Shown in pieces: positions 24,037 to 62,433 of a stretch of DNA of 64,000 nt. Each line of letters starts with the position of its first letter. Positions within the stretch are counted from its first letter, which is position 1. A model generated the notes under the pieces. It saw only the letters and a list, made by a program, of their open reading frames with translations. It was not told the DNA's origin and searched no databases. The DNA lies in assembly GCF_003334765.1 (NCBI RefSeq), contig NZ_QOWT01000008.1. One strand, written 5' to 3'. This DNA is from Escherichia coli (GTDB lineage: Bacteria > Pseudomonadota > Gammaproteobacteria > Enterobacterales > Enterobacteriaceae). The translations under genes and the position numbers were made by a program.

Positions 24037-24065
24037 CAACAGTCCTTATTAATGAGAAATCCTTC

Positions 24066-24479
24066 TCACGCAATTTTTCTGGCCATCAGATAGATGGCCG
24101 GTTCCTGCACAATTTCATCCAACAGATGAATGAATTGAATGCTACGCGCCTGCCACACAGACGTCGCGTCATCCGCCAGTGGCGCGAATGCCCGGGTCAA
24201 CAGGGCGGTGTGGCTGGCGTCAATAACAATCTCACCAAAAGTCATCACCCCCAGCATCTTACGTCGGGCTTGCTCCTCTTCGACCAGTGCAAGCCAATCT
24301 TCGTATTCCGTCAGTGGGCAGCGGAAGGCGACATTCAGACAATCAATCACGCCAACGTGATGGCCGATAGCTAGCGAGTAATACATTACCTGAGAGCTGT
24401 GTTCCGGCATCTCGTCGCTACTGGCGACAAACTTTTTTCGCAGCGTCCAGAAAACAATTTCCCCGCACTCTTCAGTCAT
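24066..24479 (-). CDS. hyfJ: Hydrogenase-4 component J (HycH-like maturation factor)
   Basis: ORF track 24066..24542; start reset to [11 protein letters not shown] (137 aa), overlapping the hyfI stop. Confidence 0.8.
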
Positions 24480-25230
24480 GTAACCCCCGGAGTACGCGAA
24501 AGAGTTGCTGAACGATACTATTGAGACGTGGATCGTCGGCATCGCGCAACCAGGTGTTAACCCGATTTCCTGTAGGAGCGTCGCTTAAATGGCGCAGGAG
24601 CCGATCGCAAATTTCTCGCCCCTGACGATAGCCCGCCAGCCGCCGCGCTTCTCGCTCAATGGCGATACGCTGTGATGGCGGGATCTGCGGCCACAACGGT
24701 TGCATAGTCACCCCGGTGGGATCGCGATAATCCACAGCGTGAATCTTCTGTTGCAGCAAACCGAGCGCCACGGCGAAACCGTGAATGGTGGCGGCCGGTG
24801 TTGGCGGGCAGCCGGGGATCCAAACATCAATGGGGACAATGGTGTCGCTACCGCCCCAGACGCTGTAGAGATCGTGGAAAATACCGCCGCCGACACCGCA
24901 CGCGCCGTAGGAAACACAAATTTTATGATCGGGGGCAGACTCATACGCCCGAAGTGCAGGCATACGCATCGCCCGGGTGACTGCGCCAGTAAATAACAAA
25001 ATATCGGCGTGACGCGGTGATGAAACAACCTTAATGCCAAAACGTTCTGCGTCGAATACTGGTGTAATGGCAGCAAAAATTTCGATTTCACAGGCGTTGC
25101 AGCCGCCGCAATCGACGCGATAAACGTAAGCCGAGCGACGGATATCCTGTAGCAAATGCCGCTTCATCTTTTGCGTTTGCTCGTCCAGCGTGATGGGCTG
25201 GCTGACATGTTGTGTAAGCACTGGACTCAT
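24472..25230 (-). CDS. hyfI: Hydrogenase-4 small subunit (NuoB-like, Fe-S)
   Basis: 252-aa ORF with conserved Cys ligands characteristic of NuoB/HycG family. Confidence 0.9.
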
Positions 25231-25772
25231 AGCTGCTCCTTAGCCACCAGCAGTACATCTGTATCGTCGTTGATCAGCGTCGCGCGTTGTTTGCATTCCG
25301 GGCAGACGCTCGCTTGCGCCCACAACATTTCGCGGTTTTGTGGCGCATTTTGTTGCTGTGCTAACAATTCAGCAGCCAGTGCGATGGTTTTTTGCGGGGC
25401 AAACGGGCGTTCGCAACGGCTGCAACGTTGTAGATGGAACGTCGCGCGGGTATAGAGATCGGCTTTATTGGTGACGGTCAGTTCAAAGTTATTGGTAAGC
25501 TGGATGGCTCTGGTCGGGCACACTTCTTCACAACGTCCGCAGTAAATACAACGCCCCAGATAGAGCTGCCAGGTGCGCGAATTTTGCTGGTCGTCGGTCT
25601 GGATAGTCAGCGCATTTGCCGGACAAGCACAGGCGCAGGCACCGCAGGCAATACATTGGCTGGGCATCAGGTCCGGTTTTCCGCGAAAGCCAGGGCTGAC
25701 CTCCAGTGGCGCGAAGGGATATTTCACCGTCGCGGTTCCGGCGCGCATAATAGTTTTCAGTAACTTCAGCAT
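25227..25772 (-). CDS. hyfH: Hydrogenase-4 ferredoxin-like subunit (2x[4Fe-4S])
   Basis: 181-aa ORF with two CxxCxxCxxxCP motifs. Confidence 0.9.
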
Positions 25773-25781
25773 CTTCTGTCC

Positions 25782-27449
25782 TTACTTCAGCGGCGAACGG
25801 TTACGATCAATGCCGTAGCGTTCGATCTCTTTATACGGCACGGTTTTTGACTGGCGCTTGCGCACATCTACCAGCGTCACACGGTCGGTACAGGAGTAGC
25901 AGGGATCAAGGCTACCGATAATCAGCGGTGCGTCAGAAACGGTATTGCCGCGCAGCATGTAACGCAACACCGGCCAGTTGGCGTAGGTGGCGGCACGGCA
26001 GCGCCAGCGGAACAATTTTTGGTTATCACCGAGCATGCTCCAGTGCACGTCTTCACCGCGTGGCGCTTCAACAAAGCCCAGCGCGAATGCGTGAGGTTTA
26101 TAGCTAAAGCCTTCGGTCAGCAGTGGGGTATCCGGCATGTTGTCGAGGGCAAATTCCAGCATTGCCAGCGAATCAAACGTCTCTTTGACACGGACCATCA
26201 CGCGGGAGAAAACATCGCCGCCGGTAAAGGTAAACAGTGTTTTTGGAATATTGCCGTAGTCGGCGTAGGGGTGATCAAAGCGCAAATCACGGGCGATTTG
26301 TCGGTCGAGAATGCCAATGCCCTGAGTGCGTTGTTCCATATTCGGCGTAGCAAGCAGCATCTCTACCAGCTCCGACACGTCGGCGCGCATCTCGCGCACC
26401 AGTTTCAGCGTTTGCAGACGTTGCTCTTTGAGAATATCGCGGCGAACACCACCAATCAGATTCAGACCGTAGGTTTTACGCGACCCGATCAGCAATTCCG
26501 CCATCGTCATCGACTTTTCCCGCACGCGGAAAAATTGCATAAAGCCGGTATCAAAACCAACGAAATGGCAGGAGAGGCCAAGGTTAAGCAAATGACTGTG
26601 TAGCCGTTCGACTTCCAGCAGAATCGAGCGAATAGTATGTGCTCGTTGCGGCACCTCAATCCCCAGTGCATTTTCAACCGAATTGGTATAGGCCACACTG
26701 TGGGCAAAACCGCAAATCCCACACACGCGGTCCGATAAGAAGGTCACTTCGTTGTAGCCCATCCGCGTTTCTGCCAGTTTCTCCATGCCGCGATGGACAT
26801 AAAACAGGCGGTAATCAGCATCGACAATTTGCTCGCCATCCACAAACAAGCGGAAGTGACCCGGTTCATCGGAGGTGATATGCAGCGGGCCGACAGGGAT
26901 CACCCGCGCATCGCTGTTGCCCTCATTGATAAACGGATACGTTTCGGAATCAGTCGTCGGTTCAGGGCGCAGTCGATAATCCATCGCATCTTTGCGCAGC
27001 GGATGCATATCTTCCGGCCAGTCATCGGGCAACACCAGGCGACGCTGATCCGGCAGGCCAACCGGAATCAGCCCGTACATATCGCGAATTTCTCGCTCGC
27101 CCCAGACCGCGGCAGGGACGCGCGGTGTGACTGACGGAAACTCCCGACTGTCGGCATCGACCAGCGCCTTCACCACAATCCAGCATTTTTCGGCCCCTTC
27201 CATTGAAAGGGCATAATAAACCGCGTAATGACCGTTAAGTGTCCGCTCGTCGTTGCCAAACAGGACCGGAAGCCAGCCATCATGTTGATAATAAAGATAC
27301 TGTACAACGTCAGGCAGCAGATTGATTTTCACCGCAATGGTGACCTGTTCAGGCGTTTGTCGCTCTTCATCCAGCACCGCGCCGGGGAACTGCGTTTTCA
27401 GGGCGGCGAGAATCGCTTCGCCACGATTTGACGATGAATTAACGTTCAC
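25782..27449 (-). CDS. hyfG: Hydrogenase-4 [NiFe] large subunit
   Basis: ORF track 25782..27494; start reset to GTG at 27447-27449 preceded by GGAG (555 aa); C-terminal DPCYSCTDR Ni-binding motif. Confidence 0.9.
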
Positions 27450-29019
27450 TGTGTTTCTCCGAAACAGATGCGGTGCCTGAAGGCAAAAAATCATGCCAGG
27501 TGCTACGTTGTGCAGGCAGATCGTGCGTCCCTGAGAGGACTATAGTGGAAGCGCCCGCCAGGATCCTGATGACAGGTTGTGGAATATGCGTTCCCATCGC
27601 CAGCATCATGACCAGCAGAATCACCATTGGCGAGGTGGTCAACCAGCCGAGATCACCCCGGTTAACGGCCTGCGGCGGTTTCGCCATTAACACCCGCGCA
27701 GCCATCCGTACCAGGCCCGCCAGCACCAGCGTTAACAGCAATAACAGCAGGACGATAATCAGCAGGTGATTACGTGCCAGTCCGGCGGTAATGGTCATAA
27801 ATTCGCTAAGAAAAATGTTGAAGGGCGGCATCCCTGCCAGCGCCAGCGCACCGCCGCCAAACAGCACGGCGGTAAATGGCATGATTTTGAGCATCCCACA
27901 GACGACGTTGAGATCGCGCGTGCCGTACTTGAGCAGTACATTGCCGGAACCGCAGAACAGCAGCGTTTTTGCCAGACTGTGGTTTAAGATGTGCAGCAGC
28001 GCGGCAAAAATTCCCAGCGGCCCGCCAATGCCTAGCTCCACCGCGACCAGCCCCATGTTCTCCACGCTGGAGTACGCCAGCAGACGCTTAATGTCCCGCT
28101 GTACCAGAATGAAAAATGCCGCCACGGCAACCGACAACATGCCGAAGATGAGCAACAACCGGTTGGGGAAATCGCTGCCGATGGCTTGGCAAATAATGAT
28201 GTAATAGCGAATCAGCACCAACAGCGCGCAGTTCAGCAATACGGCGGAGAGCAGGGCGCTGACCGGACTCGGCGCTTCACTGTGAGCATCCGGCAGCCAG
28301 GCGTGCATGGGAAATAGCCCGGTTTTGGTACCAAAGCCAATTAGCAAAAACACAAAGGCCAACAGCATTAATGTTGGGTCAAGCAAGGACGATTGCTTAA
28401 GAACCTCGCTCCAGAATATCGCCATTTCTGCCTGCGGCATAACGCTGGCGGCGTTGGCGTATACCAGCACGGTACCGAACAGACCAAAAGCGACACCAAC
28501 AGTACAAATAATGATGTACTTCCATGCAGCTTCCAGCGATGAACGCTGACCGTAAATGCCTACCAGAAACGCCGAGCTTAAGGTGGTGGCTTCGATCGCC
28601 GCCCACATCACAATCAGGTTATTGCTGGTAACAACCAGCAGCATGGTGAACAAAAACAGATGGAAGAAACCGTAGTAATCGCACAGCGTAACGGGTGAAA
28701 GCTCGCCGTGTGCCACTTCATGACGCATGTAGCCAATCGAGTAAATACCGGTGAGAAAGCCAATCACACCAAGAATGGCGAGGAACAAACCGCCCAGACC
28801 ATCAATATGAAGCCACAGTCCCGCAGCGAATATTTCTCCTGCATCAGCGGCAGTTTGGACCACCCAGAGTGCCAGAATCAGCAGCAGTATGATCCCTAAG
28901 CTATGTAATACGGTCACCGTGCGAGTCGCAGAAAGTCTCCGTTTCCGGCAGGCAAAACAGAGCAGCGAAAAAAGCAGCGGCGTGAGCAGGAGTAAAGCGA
29001 ACATCACAGAATAACTCAT
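27439..29019 (-). CDS. hyfF: Hydrogenase-4 membrane subunit F (NuoL/M/N antiporter-like)
   Basis: 526-aa polytopic membrane ORF. Confidence 0.9.
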
Positions 29020-57558: not shown

Positions 57559-59838
57559 ATGGATGACCAGTTAAAACAAAGTGCACTTGATTTCCATGAA
57601 TTTCCAGTTCCAGGGAAAATCCAGGTTTCTCCAACCAAGCCTCTGGCAACACAGCGCGATCTGGCGCTGGCCTACTCACCAGGCGTTGCCGCACCTTGTC
57701 TTGAAATCGAAAAAGACCCGTTAAAAGCCTACAAATATACCGCCCGCGGTAACCTGGTGGCGGTGATCTCTAACGGTACGGCGGTGCTGGGGTTAGGCAA
57801 CATTGGCGCGCTGGCAGGCAAACCGGTGATGGAAGGCAAGGGCGTTCTGTTTAAGAAATTCGCCGGGATTGATGTATTTGACATTGAAGTTGACGAACTC
57901 GACCCGGACAAATTTATTGAAGTTGTCGCCGCGCTCGAACCAACCTTCGGCGGCATCAACCTCGAAGACATTAAAGCGCCAGAATGTTTCTATATTGAAC
58001 AGAAACTGCGCGAGCGGATGAATATTCCGGTATTCCACGACGATCAGCACGGCACGGCAATTATCAGCACTGCCGCCATCCTCAACGGCTTGCGCGTGGT
58101 GGAGAAAAACATCTCCGACGTGCGGATGGTGGTTTCCGGCGCGGGTGCCGCAGCAATCGCCTGTATGAACCTGCTGGTAGCGCTGGGTCTGCAAAAACAT
58201 AACATCGTGGTTTGCGATTCAAAAGGCGTTATCTATCAGGGCCGTGAGCCAAACATGGCGGAAACCAAAGCCGCATATGCGGTGGTGGATGACGGCAAAC
58301 GTACCCTCGATGATGTGATTGAAGGCGCGGATATTTTCCTGGGCTGTTCCGGCCCGAAAGTGCTGACCCAGGAAATGGTGAAGAAAATGGCTCGTGCGCC
58401 AATGATCCTGGCGCTGGCGAACCCGGAACCGGAAATTCTGCCGCCGCTGGCGAAAGAAGTGCGTCCGGATGCCATCATTTGCACCGGTCGTTCTGACTAT
58501 CCGAACCAGGTGAACAACGTCCTGTGCTTCCCGTTCATCTTCCGTGGCGCGCTGGACGTTGGCGCAACCGCCATCAACGAAGAGATGAAACTGGCGGCGG
58601 TACGTGCGATTGCAGAACTCGCCCATGCGGAACAGAGCGAAGTGGTGGCTTCAGCGTATGGCGATCAGGATCTGAGCTTTGGTCCGGAATACATCATTCC
58701 AAAACCGTTTGATCCGCGCTTGATCGTTAAGATCGCTCCTGCGGTCGCTAAAGCCGCGATGGAGTCGGGCGTGGCGACTCGTCCGATTGCTGATTTCGAC
58801 GTCTACATCGACAAGCTGACTGAGTTCGTTTACAAAACCAACCTGTTTATGAAGCCGATTTTCTCCCAGGCTCGCAAAGCGCCGAAGCGCGTTGTTCTGC
58901 CGGAAGGGGAAGAGGCGCGCGTTCTGCATGCCACTCAGGAACTGGTAACGCTGGGACTGGCGAAACCGATCCTTATCGGTCGTCCGAACGTGATCGAAAT
59001 GCGCATTCAGAAACTGGGCTTGCAGATCAAAGCGGGCGTTGATTTTGAGATCGTCAATAACGAATCCGATCCGCGCTTTAAAGAGTACTGGACCGAATAC
59101 TTCCAGATCATGAAGCGTCGCGGCGTCACTCAGGAACAGGCGCAGCGGGCGCTGATCAGTAACCCGACAGTGATCGGCGCGATCATGGTTCAGCGTGGGG
59201 AAGCCGATGCAATGATTTGCGGTACGGTGGGTGATTATCATGAACATTTTAGCGTGGTGAAAAATGTCTTTGGTTATCGCGATGGCGTTCACACCGCAGG
59301 TGCCATGAACGCGCTGCTGCTGCCGAGTGGTAACACCTTTATTGCCGATACATATGTTAATGATGAACCGGATGCAGAAGAGCTGGCGGAGATCACCTTG
59401 ATGGCGGCAGAAACTGTCCGTCGTTTTGGTATTGAGCCGCGCGTTGCTTTGTTGTCGCACTCCAACTTTGGTTCTTCTGACTGCCCGTCGTCGAGCAAAA
59501 TGCGTCAGGCGCTGGAACTGGTCAGGGAACGTGCACCAGAACTGATGATTGATGGTGAAATGCACGGCGATGCAGCGCTGGTGGAAGCGATTCGCAACGA
59601 CCGTATGCCGGACAGCTCTTTGAAAGGTTCCGCCAATATTCTGGTGATGCCGAACATGGAAGCTGCCCGCATTAGTTACAACTTACTGCGTGTTTCCAGC
59701 TCGGAAGGTGTGACTGTCGGCCCGGTGCTGATGGGTGTGGCGAAACCGGTTCACGTGTTAACGCCGATCGCATCGGTGCGTCGTATCGTCAACATGGTGG
59801 CGCTGGCCGTGGTAGAAGCGCAAACCCAACCGCTGTAA
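57559..59838 (+). CDS. maeB: NADP-dependent malic enzyme (malic enzyme domain fused to PTA-like domain)
   Basis: 759-aa [26 protein letters not shown].... Confidence 0.95.
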
Positions 59839-59854
59839 TTTTTTTAACTCTCAC

Positions 59855-59880
59855 GCTTACCCTGAATATTCAGGGTAAGC
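59855..59880. other. Perfect 26-bp palindrome GCTTACCCTGAAT|ATTCAGGGTAAGC after maeB
   Basis: Read directly from sequence 17 nt after the maeB stop; no downstream U-tract; lies at the distal edge of the eut upstream region. Confidence 0.5.
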
Positions 59881-60129
59881 AGTTTAGCTGCAATATATTA
59901 GTAAAGCTTATTACTGAGTTTGCGAATAATAAAAAAAAGCAGTCTATATAATATCTCGATATTATTTTATTTATATTCATGCGTTGCATATGAAAGTTTA
60001 TGCACCACAGCGAATATCTCTCCATTCTTAGTGATCTACCTCACCTTTTAAACGCGCTTGCCGAATTTTGTTATTTACTCTGACGAAAAATTGTCACGAT
60101 ACACGAAAGTTTTTCACAGGCGGCGACTC

Positions 60130-60465
60130 ATGGATAAAGAACGCATCATTCAGGAATTTGTGCCCGGCAAACAGGTCACACTGGCGCATCTCATCGCGCA
60201 TCCCGGTGAGGAACTGGCGAAGAAAATCGGCGTTCCGGATGCGGGCGCAATTGGCATTATGACGCTAACTCCCGGCGAAACGGCGATGATCGCCGGTGAT
60301 TTAGCGCTGAAAGCCGCTGATGTGCATATCGGTTTTCTCGACCGATTCAGCGGTGCATTGGTGATTTATGGCTCGGTGGGCGCAGTAGAAGAAGCGTTAT
60401 CACAAACCGTCAGCGGTTTAGGTCGCTTATTAAATTATACGCTTTGTGAAATGACCAAAAGTTAA
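60130..60465 (+). CDS. eutS: Ethanolamine-utilisation microcompartment shell protein EutS
   Basis: ORF track 60058..60465; start reset to [21 protein letters not shown] (111 aa). Confidence 0.9.
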
Positions 60466-60477
60466 TACGAGGCATTC

Positions 60478-60957
60478 ATGAAACGAATTGCGTTTGTGGG
60501 TAGCGTCGGGGCAGGAAAAACAACGTTATTTAATGCGTTGCAGGGGAATTATACCCTCGCCAGAAAAACACAGGCCGTGGAATTTAATGATAAGGGCGAT
60601 ATTGATACGCCGGGTGAATATTTTAACCATCCCCGCTGGTATCACGCCTTAATTACCACGCTACAGGATGTAGACATGCTGATCTATGTCCATGGCGCAA
60701 ATGACCCGGAAAGTCGGTTGCCTGCCGGGTTGCTGGATATTGGCGTCAGCAAACGGCAAATCGCCGTCATCAGTAAAACGGACATGCCAGATGCTGACGT
60801 CGCCGCAACGCGAAAGTTATTGCTTGAGACGGGCTTCGAAGAGCCGATTTTCGAGCTAAACAGCCACGACCCGCAAAGCGTGCAGCAACTGGTGGATTAT
60901 CTGGCATCTCTCACCAAACAGGAGGAAGCAGGTGAAAAAACTCATCACAGCGAATGA
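60478..60957 (+). CDS. eutP: Ethanolamine-utilisation P-loop acetate kinase-like protein EutP
   Basis: 159-aa ORF with Walker A GSVGAGKTT. Confidence 0.9.
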   Translation: MKRIAFVGSVGAGKTTLFNALQGNYTLARKTQAVEFNDKGDIDTPGEYFNHPRWYHALITTLQDVDMLIYVHGANDPESRLPAGLLDIGVSKRQIAVISKTDMPDADVAATRKLLLETGFEEPIFELNSHDPQSVQQLVDYLASLTKQEEAGEKTHHSE

Positions 60958-61633
60958 TATTCGTGAAGCACACGCGCGCGGCGAACAGGCAATGTCCGTG
61001 GTTCTGCGCGCCAGCATTATTACCCCGGAAGCCCGTGAAGTGGCGGATCTACTGGGTTTTACCATCACCGAATGTGATGAATCGATCCCGGTAACGGCGT
61101 CCGTGCCCGCCAGCGTGCCAGCCGACAAAACCGAAAGCCAGCGCATCCGCGAAACCATCATTGCCCAGCTGCCGGAAGGCCAGTTTACCGAAAGCCTGGT
61201 CGCACAGCTGATGGAAAAAGTGATGAAGGAAAAACAGTCGCTGGAGCAGGGCGCAATGCAGCCGAGCTTCAAATCGGTGACCGGCAAAGGCGGCATCAAA
61301 GTGATTGATGGCAGTAGCGTCAAGTTTGGTCGTTTCGACGGCGCAGAGCCGCATTGCGTGGGCTTGACTGATCTTGTGACCGGAGACGACGGCAGCAGCA
61401 TGGCCGCCGGTTTTATGCAGTGGGAGAACGCATTCTTCCCGTGGACCCTGAACTACGACGAAATCGACATGGTGCTGGAAGGGGAGCTGCATGTTCGCCA
61501 CGAAGGCCAAACCATGATCGCCAAAGCAGGCGACGTGATGTTTATCCCGAAAGGCTCCAGCATCGAATTTGGTACGACATCCAGCGTGAAATTCCTGTAT
61601 GTCGCCTGGCCGGCTAACTGGCAATCCCTATGA
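60932..61633 (+). CDS. eutQ: Ethanolamine-utilisation cupin-domain protein EutQ
   Basis: 233-aa ORF MKKLITANDIREAHARGEQ...; overlaps the eutP 3' end by 26 nt. Confidence 0.88.
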   Translation: MKKLITANDIREAHARGEQAMSVVLRASIITPEAREVADLLGFTITECDESIPVTASVPASVPADKTESQRIRETIIAQLPEGQFTESLVAQLMEKVMKEKQSLEQGAMQPSFKSVTGKGGIKVIDGSSVKFGRFDGAEPHCVGLTDLVTGDDGSSMAAGFMQWENAFFPWTLNYDEIDMVLEGELHVRHEGQTMIAKAGDVMFIPKGSSIEFGTTSSVKFLYVAWPANWQSL

Positions 61634-62433
61634 AAGATTTCATCACCGAAGCATGGCTAAGAGCGAACCATACGCTCAGCGAAGGCGCAGAGATCCATCT
61701 CCCTGCGGACAGTCGCCTGACGCCCTCTGCCCGGGAGTTGCTGGAAAGCCGCCATCTGCGCATCAAGTTTATTGACGAGCAGGGCCGCCTGTTTGTTGAC
61801 GATGAACAGCAGCAGCCGCAGCCCGTTCATGGGCTGACCAGTAGCGATGAACATCCGCAGGCGTGCTGCGAACTGTGTCGCCAGCCGGTGGCAAAAAAGC
61901 CGGATACGCTGACTCACCTGTCGGCGGAAAAAATGGTCGCCAAAAGCGATCCGCGTCTGGGTTTTCGCGCGGTTCTCGACAGCACCATTGCGCTGGCAGT
62001 GTGGCTGCAAATTGAACTGGCGGAACCGTGGCAGCCGTGGCTGGCGGATATCCGTTCGCGTCTTGGCAACATTATGCGCGCCGATGCGCTGGGGGAACCG
62101 CTGGGCTGCCAGGCGATTGTCGGGCTTTCTGACGAAGATCTGCATCGGCTTTCTCATCAGCCGCTGCGCTATCTCGACCACGATCATCTGGTGCCGGAAG
62201 CCAGCCACGGGCGCGATGCTGCGTTGCTCAATCTGCTACGCACCAAAGTGCGGGAAACCGAAACCGTAGCGGCGCAGGTCTTTATCACCCGCAGCTTTGA
62301 AGTATTACGCCCGGACATTTTGCAGGCGCTGAACCGCCTTTCGAGCACGGTCTACGTGATGATGATCCTGAGCGTAACGAAGCAGCCGCTAACGGTGAAG
62401 CAGATCCAACAACGACTGGGGGAAACGCAATGA
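61630..62433 (+). CDS. eutT: Ethanolamine-utilisation corrinoid adenosyltransferase EutT
   Basis: 267-aa [22 protein letters not shown]...; 4-nt overlaps with eutQ and eutD. Confidence 0.9.

Follow-up and report, generated by a model that had tools for sequence, protein, structure and literature searches.

The analysed window, a stretch of 64,000 nucleotides, is an Escherichia coli chromosomal segment that runs from der to eutN. Its eut part is 100% identical to that of strain FORC 064 and 99.8% identical to that of K-12 MG1655. Near the end of the window eutP and eutQ lie on the same strand and share coding sequence, with eutQ read in the +1 frame relative to eutP (Table 1). The eutP product is a small GTPase-like acetate kinase of the EutP/PduV family, with the domain spanning residues 2–144 and followed by a non-conserved tail (residues 145–159). 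EutQ combines an N-terminal shell- and cargo-binding region of about 99 amino acids with a C-terminal cupin acetate-kinase domain.

Table 1. Features of the eutP/eutQ junction and of the neighbouring eut junctions (positions in the window).
Feature	Position	Strand	Remarks
eutS-eutP spacer	60466..60477	+	12 nt; holds the weaker GAGG Shine-Dalgarno of eutP
eutP CDS	60478..60957	+	ATG 60478, TGA 60955-60957; 159 aa; ORF, NCBIfam and RefSeq
Shine-Dalgarno AGGAGG of eutQ	60920..60925	+	6 nt before GTG; within eutP codons Q148-E149-E150
GTG start of eutQ	60932..60934	+	first ATG/GTG/TTG past the upstream in-frame stop
eutQ CDS	60932..61633	+	GTG 60932, TGA 61631-61633; 233 aa; ORF, NCBIfam and RefSeq
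Dual-frame region, eutQ side	60932..60957	+	26 nt; codons 1-8 and two bases of codon 9 (M-K-K-L-I-T-A-N-D)
Dual-frame region, eutP side	60932..60957	+	codons 152-159 and stop (G-E-K-T-H-H-S-E-stop)
A6 homopolymer	60935..60940	+	eutQ Lys2-Lys3; with one A lost, eutP codons 1-154 join eutQ 4-233 in frame
eutP stop TGA	60955..60957	+	last base of eutQ Asn8 (AAT) and first two of Asp9 (GAT)
ATG of eutQ codon 21	60992..60994	+	sole plausible downstream alternative start; rejected
eutQ stop/eutT start ATGA	61630..61633	+	4-nt overlap
eutT stop/eutD (pta) start	62430..62433	+	4-nt overlap

Both open reading frames encode recognised full-length proteins. EutP matches the NCBIfam equivalog model NF012011 over residues 1–159 of 159 with 350 bits (cut-off 258), and TIGR02528 covers its residues 2–144. 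EutQ matches the equivalog model NF012001 over residues 1–233 of 233 with 502 bits (cut-off 193), Pfam PF06249 (EutQ) over residues 85–232 (E = 6.8e-70) and PDB 2PYT over residues 102–232. It is a member of the EutQ family (NF012001; PF06249), with the cupin domain and, at the N-terminus, the region that characterises the Gram-negative form. EutQ residues 1–84 fall outside every Pfam family. RefSeq agrees on the coordinates and on the 26-nt overlap in K-12 MG1655, in STEC299 and in the strain that is identical to the window. In good agreement with this annotation, the ORF coordinates bear out the central observation of the original prediction, namely that eutQ starts 26 nt inside eutP in a different frame. 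Judged from the two reading frames and their family assignments, both genes are real, and their coding sequences do overlap on the same strand.

The overlap is already known. The corresponding genes in K-12 are eutP (b2461) and eutQ (b2460), whose annotated junction is the same locus with identical relative coordinates and the same 26 nt, and it is recorded in two papers. The supplement to Huber et al. 2023 lists distances of −26 for eutP-eutQ, −4 for eutQ-eutT, −4 for eutT-eutD and +12 for eutS-eutP (PMC10666635), and a Sci Adv 2025 paper states that codons 1–9 of Salmonella eutQ overlap eutP (PMC12487888). The 80-nt junction sequence is identical in 5295 of the 5409 complete E. coli genomes that carry the locus. 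It is the longest annotated overlap in the window, the next being hyfG/hyfF with 11 nt; within the same hyf operon (24065–29018, minus strand) hyfJ/hyfI overlap by 8 nt and hyfI/hyfH by 4 nt. Annotated overlaps of a single nucleotide occur at purN/purM, hyfB/hyfA and bcp/gcvR. The length of the eutP/eutQ overlap is not statistically remarkable: eutP runs on for 8 codons past the eutQ start, which is unexceptional at about three stops per 64 codons. According to Johnson & Chisholm 2004, as cited in PMC12548453, the shared stretch is shorter than 30 bp in more than 80% of the prokaryotic gene pairs that overlap.

The original prediction had set this junction against neighbouring eut junctions that overlap by 4 nt. 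This description is accurate for eutQ/eutT and eutT/eutD but not for eutS/eutP, where a 12-nt gap separates the genes, nor for eutD/eutM, where the annotated gap is 38 nt. The mechanically derived eutM ORF (ATG 63443, 111 aa) does overlap the eutD stop by 4 nt in an ATGA, and may have been counted as another junction of this kind; the RefSeq start of eutM is 63485 (97 aa). The mechanical eutS ORF is likewise extended, opening at TTG 60058 (135 aa), while in the annotation eutS starts at ATG 60130, as it does in the NCBIfam model (111 of 111 positions).

We compared the eutQ start across 54 loci encoding EutQ relatives, taking one genome per species. The set includes Escherichia, Citrobacter, Salmonella, Klebsiella, Pseudocitrobacter, Yokenella, Buttiauxella and Pluralibacter, as well as Morganella, Entomohabitans, Telmatospirillum, Iodobacter, Chromobacterium and others. 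A start codon occupies the homologous position in all 54 loci (GTG in 33, ATG in 21) and is followed by the peptide K-(K/T/Q)-L-I-(T/S)-A. The upstream Shine-Dalgarno sequence matches the anti-Shine-Dalgarno complement over at least 4 nt in 54/54 loci and over at least 5 nt in 43/54. More distant homologues came from a scan, made without a profile, of 1.84 billion representative proteins; it returned dozens of full-length sequences with 29–68% identity. When 53 distant representatives were aligned, nearly all opened with M-K-K-L-I-T, at most one or two residues away from the annotated N-terminus. Residues 1–20 as a whole are near-invariant in Enterobacteriaceae and conserved in these 53 representatives. 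Furthermore, EutQ residues 1–51 (60932–61084) align from the very first residue with EutT residues 1–51 (61630–61782) at 33% identity (E = 6e-5), and a conserved module therefore begins at the annotated EutQ start. From the alignment, this homology looks like an N-terminal module shared by Eut accessory proteins.

Further observations concern the N-terminal half of EutQ. Residues 6–92 match the N-terminal 88 positions of the NCBIfam EutA model NF007991 (E = 1.6e-9). The linker between helices H2 and H3 (approximately 61080–61130, residues ~50–66) is hypervariable in length, and some strains carry tandem duplications near it (P0001 and P0012, of 252 and 245 aa) or, as in P0119 (214 aa), a deletion. 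E. coli alleles of EutQ are 233 or 229 aa long and those of relatives 230–247 aa.

The functional literature on Salmonella concerns this same N-terminal region. Chromosomal deletion of eutQ codons 9–21, which encode helix H1, or of codons 9–99 disconnects shell and cargo, and H1 is needed for shell-cargo association (PMC12487888). Residues 1–99 suffice to target GFP to the compartment, and both residues 9–21 and 1–99 are required in microcompartment assembly (PMC12487888). Taken with the conservation described above, GTG 60932 appears to be the true, ancestral and conserved start of EutQ. Our literature search found neither EutQ N-terminal proteomics nor initiation profiling under eut-inducing conditions, and no paper pairing eutQ with ribosome profiling.

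While the eutQ start is constant and eutP lies directly 5′ of eutQ in all loci, the geometry of the junction differs among them. The overlap measures 26 nt in Escherichia, C. sedlakii, Yokenella and Entomohabitans, and 23 nt in most Citrobacter, Salmonella, Klebsiella and Pseudocitrobacter; it is reduced to a 4-nt ATGA in Buttiauxella, Telmatospirillum, Iodobacter and Xenophilus, and is replaced by a gap of 12–15 nt in Morganella, Pluralibacter gergoviae, Intestinirhabdus and Chromobacterium. Individual loci depart further. In Citrobacter amalonaticus S646 (L027) eutP ends 168 nt before eutQ, in C. koseri NCTC10786 (L049) a shifted eutP tail gives a 4-nt overlap, and at one locus (L023) the match to EutP extends over residues 44–158 only; all three keep the eutQ start and its Shine-Dalgarno sequence.

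The difference between 23 and 26 nt is due to a synonymous eutQ codon. In Citrobacter, Salmonella and Klebsiella, Ala7 is GCT, which together with the following AAY creates a TAA in the eutP frame, so that the overlap is 23 nt; the homologous junction of Salmonella enterica LT2 is of this type. Where Ala7 is GCG the TAA is removed, and the next stop in the eutP frame is the TGA formed by AAT-GAT, at 26 nt. Meeting no stop in its own frame up to the eutQ start, eutP reads on to the first out-of-frame stop.

We compared codon positions in the 23/26-nt group, in which 33 loci yield 25 distinct junction sequences. Scored in the eutQ frame, all 7 third positions within the overlap vary, whereas among the first and the second positions, 8 of each, 2 vary in either case. 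The peptide VKKLITAND is encoded by 22 of the 25 sequences, whereas in the EutP frame the same sequences specify 13 different tails (GEKTHHSE*, GEKTYHS*, GEETNHS*, DENVSHRE* and others, the asterisk denoting the stop). The EutP/PduV family model stops at residue 144 of 159, and the overlap thus involves only the tail outside the conserved domain. In the EutP frame the eutQ Shine-Dalgarno sequence reads Q-E-E, and the eutQ initiation region thus dictates the final ~13 residues of EutP. In the clade of Escherichia, Salmonella, Citrobacter and Klebsiella eutP has a short non-conserved tail with its stop inside eutQ codons 7–9. The eutQ initiation region as a whole (AGGAGG with its 6-nt spacer, then GTG and codons 1–8) lies within the 3′ end of eutP. 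The pattern suggests that selection acts on the eutQ frame, the final EutP residues being a passive by-product.

The same comparison bears on the alternative eutQ start offered in the original prediction. Were EutQ to begin at Met21, either exclusively or alongside the GTG, there would be no true overlap, or there would be two isoforms. An ATG is a better start codon than a GTG, and a 213-aa EutQ starting with MSVVLRAS is indeed given by some gene callers and by a few RefSeq WP_ records (P0286, P0295, P0297). Against this, only 20 of the 54 loci have an ATG at codon 21, and 30 have a codon there that cannot serve as a start, while the annotated position has a conserved GTG or ATG with a Shine-Dalgarno sequence in every one. 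No usable Shine-Dalgarno sequence precedes 60992, the substitutions in eutQ codons 2–8 are synonymous, and residues 1–20 are near-invariant in Enterobacteriaceae. A Met21 start would also delete helix H1 (residues 9–21), which is functionally required in Salmonella (PMC12487888). One of the 213-aa calls (L064) was made despite an intact GTG, A6 and AGGAGG and is therefore a gene-caller truncation, and another sequence (L065) is cut by a contig end. Databases carry EutQ entries of 213 and 209 aa that begin at Met21 (L064, 801–1442); these are gene-caller choices or contig truncations in which the conserved N-terminal helix is lost. We consider a start at Met21 highly improbable, and rejected it on the combined grounds of conservation, codon-position pattern and functional literature. 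The alternative-start part of the original prediction is accordingly not supported.

A further ATG, at position 60954, forms an ATGA with the eutP stop and opens a 46-aa third-frame ORF inside eutQ (60954–61094). It exists only where eutQ Asn8 is AAT, many relatives having AAC, and the ORF is probably a chance occurrence.

The A6 run at eutQ Lys2-Lys3 raises the question of whether the two frames are ever joined. Protein searches returned 384-aa fusions of EutP and EutQ; in the commonest of them (P0270, P0271 and P0272), found on 33, 13 and 8 contigs, respectively, of draft and Logan assemblies, EutP(1–154) is followed exactly by EutQ(4–233). In the six contigs inspected (L058–L063) the run is, at the DNA level, A5 instead of A6; three of them also have a split (frameshifted) eutT, and in one more the eutS call is truncated. 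The A5 79-mer has no exact match in 5409 complete E. coli genomes. We therefore rejected the fusions as real alleles; they are probably homopolymer sequencing errors or sporadic mutations.

One could still suppose that A6 promotes +1 ribosomal or transcriptional slippage and so yields a functional fusion of two acetate kinases. eutQ does lie in the +1 frame, a +1 shift on AAA AAA would leave tRNA-Lys perfectly paired again, and the A5 variants that recur in public assemblies encode exactly the 384-aa fusion. As in prfB (+1) and dnaX (−1), an SD-like sequence precedes a homopolymeric run of Lys codons and the second frame is open downstream. However, the run is not conserved across genera, being interrupted as AAGAAA in Klebsiella and other loci and as AAAACG or AAAACA in Yokenella and Entomohabitans, and unlike prfB and dnaX the eutP/eutQ junction has no conserved slippery motif, stimulatory stop or hungry codon. 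Neither a slow codon nor a stop follows the run. In prfB, +1 shifting is stimulated by a Shine-Dalgarno sequence at roughly 3 nt; that of eutQ lies 11 nt upstream, a spacing that is wrong for a +1 shift. As read from the sequence, the eutP frame also has no canonical X XXY YYZ heptamer of the dnaX type. Adding the lack of an exact A5 match in the complete genomes and the apparently error-prone nature of the A5 contigs, we find programmed recoding hardly credible, and give next to no weight to the related idea that the E. coli A6 is a low-level +1 slippage site or a mutational switch to EutP(1–154)-EutQ(4–233). If it were true, the EutQ N-terminal region in the fusion would tether EutP, a kinase that is otherwise cytosolic, to the microcompartment.

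There remains the question of how ribosomes reach the eutQ start. The original prediction invoked translational coupling, in which ribosomes would stop at 60955–60957, back up 23 nt and reinitiate at the GTG, or in which translation of eutP would unfold the eutQ site. The genes do overlap, the eutQ Shine-Dalgarno sequence lies inside translated eutP sequence, and part of the Shine-Dalgarno region is paired in the minimum-free-energy fold; that GTG is a weaker start codon than ATG also speaks against independent initiation. The predicted fold, however, is no more stable than expected. The junction RNA (60885–60985, 101 nt) folds at −20.3 kcal/mol, compared with a mean of −21.95 ± 2.8 for shuffled sequences (z = +0.59), and 142 of the 200 shuffles equal or exceed the native sequence in stability. 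Folding of this segment thus gave no signal of a stable structure hiding the eutQ Shine-Dalgarno sequence or start, and we rejected a sequestering structure as the basis of coupling. A consensus scan of 59800–61700 found no promoter-like site near the junction, and a scan of the same interval for terminators found one weak site, inside eutQ, which is below chance expectation.

Distance and protein abundance also weigh against coupling. Huber et al. took −8 to +10 nt as the predictive range for termination-reinitiation (PMC10666635); the eutP stop, 23 nt past the eutQ start (distance −26), is outside it. In native E. coli pairs reinitiation falls steeply with distance, by 40–80% at 14 nt and by 80–100% at 38 nt, values measured for positive intergenic distances only (PMC10666635). 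In E. coli W3110 grown on ethanolamine and B12, iBAQ values were 100 for EutQ, 7 ± 1 for EutP and 11 ± 3 for EutS (PMC11334477). EutQ is thus about 14-fold more abundant than EutP, in a label-free measurement that reports the steady state only, whereas reinitiation cannot exceed the upstream product. A difference in stability between encapsulated EutQ and cytosolic EutP could contribute to this ratio. Finally, relatives with gaps of 12–15 nt keep the same Shine-Dalgarno sequence and start. The overlap, then, is not a functional feature that has been conserved.

We infer that eutQ initiation is predominantly independent of eutP. The 30S subunit would bind the strong eutQ signal (AGGAGG-N6-GTG) directly, without ribosomes being handed on from eutP, and such direct initiation would allow the level of EutQ, which links shell and cargo, to rise far above that of EutP. 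Very probably, then, two genuine genes overlap out of phase in an ordinary way, with a conserved GTG start, passive run-on of eutP and mainly independent initiation of eutQ. Coupling as the main route to eutQ is unlikely and not needed, and of the interpretation put forward in the original prediction what survives is a possible minor contribution of coupling.

Established coupling systems offer points of comparison. Short ATGA (−4), TGATG (−1) and −8 overlaps share with eutP/eutQ the co-directional operon arrangement and a downstream start inside the upstream gene, and eutQ/eutT and eutT/eutD just downstream are of the classic short stop/start type. The eutP/eutQ pair differs from them in that the eutP stop lies well past the eutQ start and in the great excess of EutQ over EutP. 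In phages fr and MS2, the lysis gene is not known to be initiated without termination of the coat gene, nor to have an accessible strong ribosome-binding site. The coat and lysis genes resemble eutP and eutQ in overlapping out of frame by tens of nucleotides, and backward reinitiation over the 34-nt overlap of fr, as cited in PMC10666635, is documented; eutQ, by contrast, is preceded by a consensus AGGAGG at the ideal distance, and its junction RNA is not unusually structured. Beyond the −4, −1 and −8 types, overlaps are rare (PMC10666635, PMC12548453).

The overlap matters little beyond good annotation practice, and there its lessons are concrete. An overlap of 23–26 nt with a GTG start can be correct, and gene callers that avoid it yield a 213-aa EutQ without helix H1, part of the shell-cargo linking region. 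One-base errors in A6 put spurious EutP-EutQ fusions into public databases. For strain engineering, a deletion or tag placed at the 3′ end of eutP will also alter EutQ, which is the most abundant Eut protein, because the last ~13 codons of eutP carry the ribosome-binding site and first codons of eutQ; published constructs in Salmonella already take this into account.
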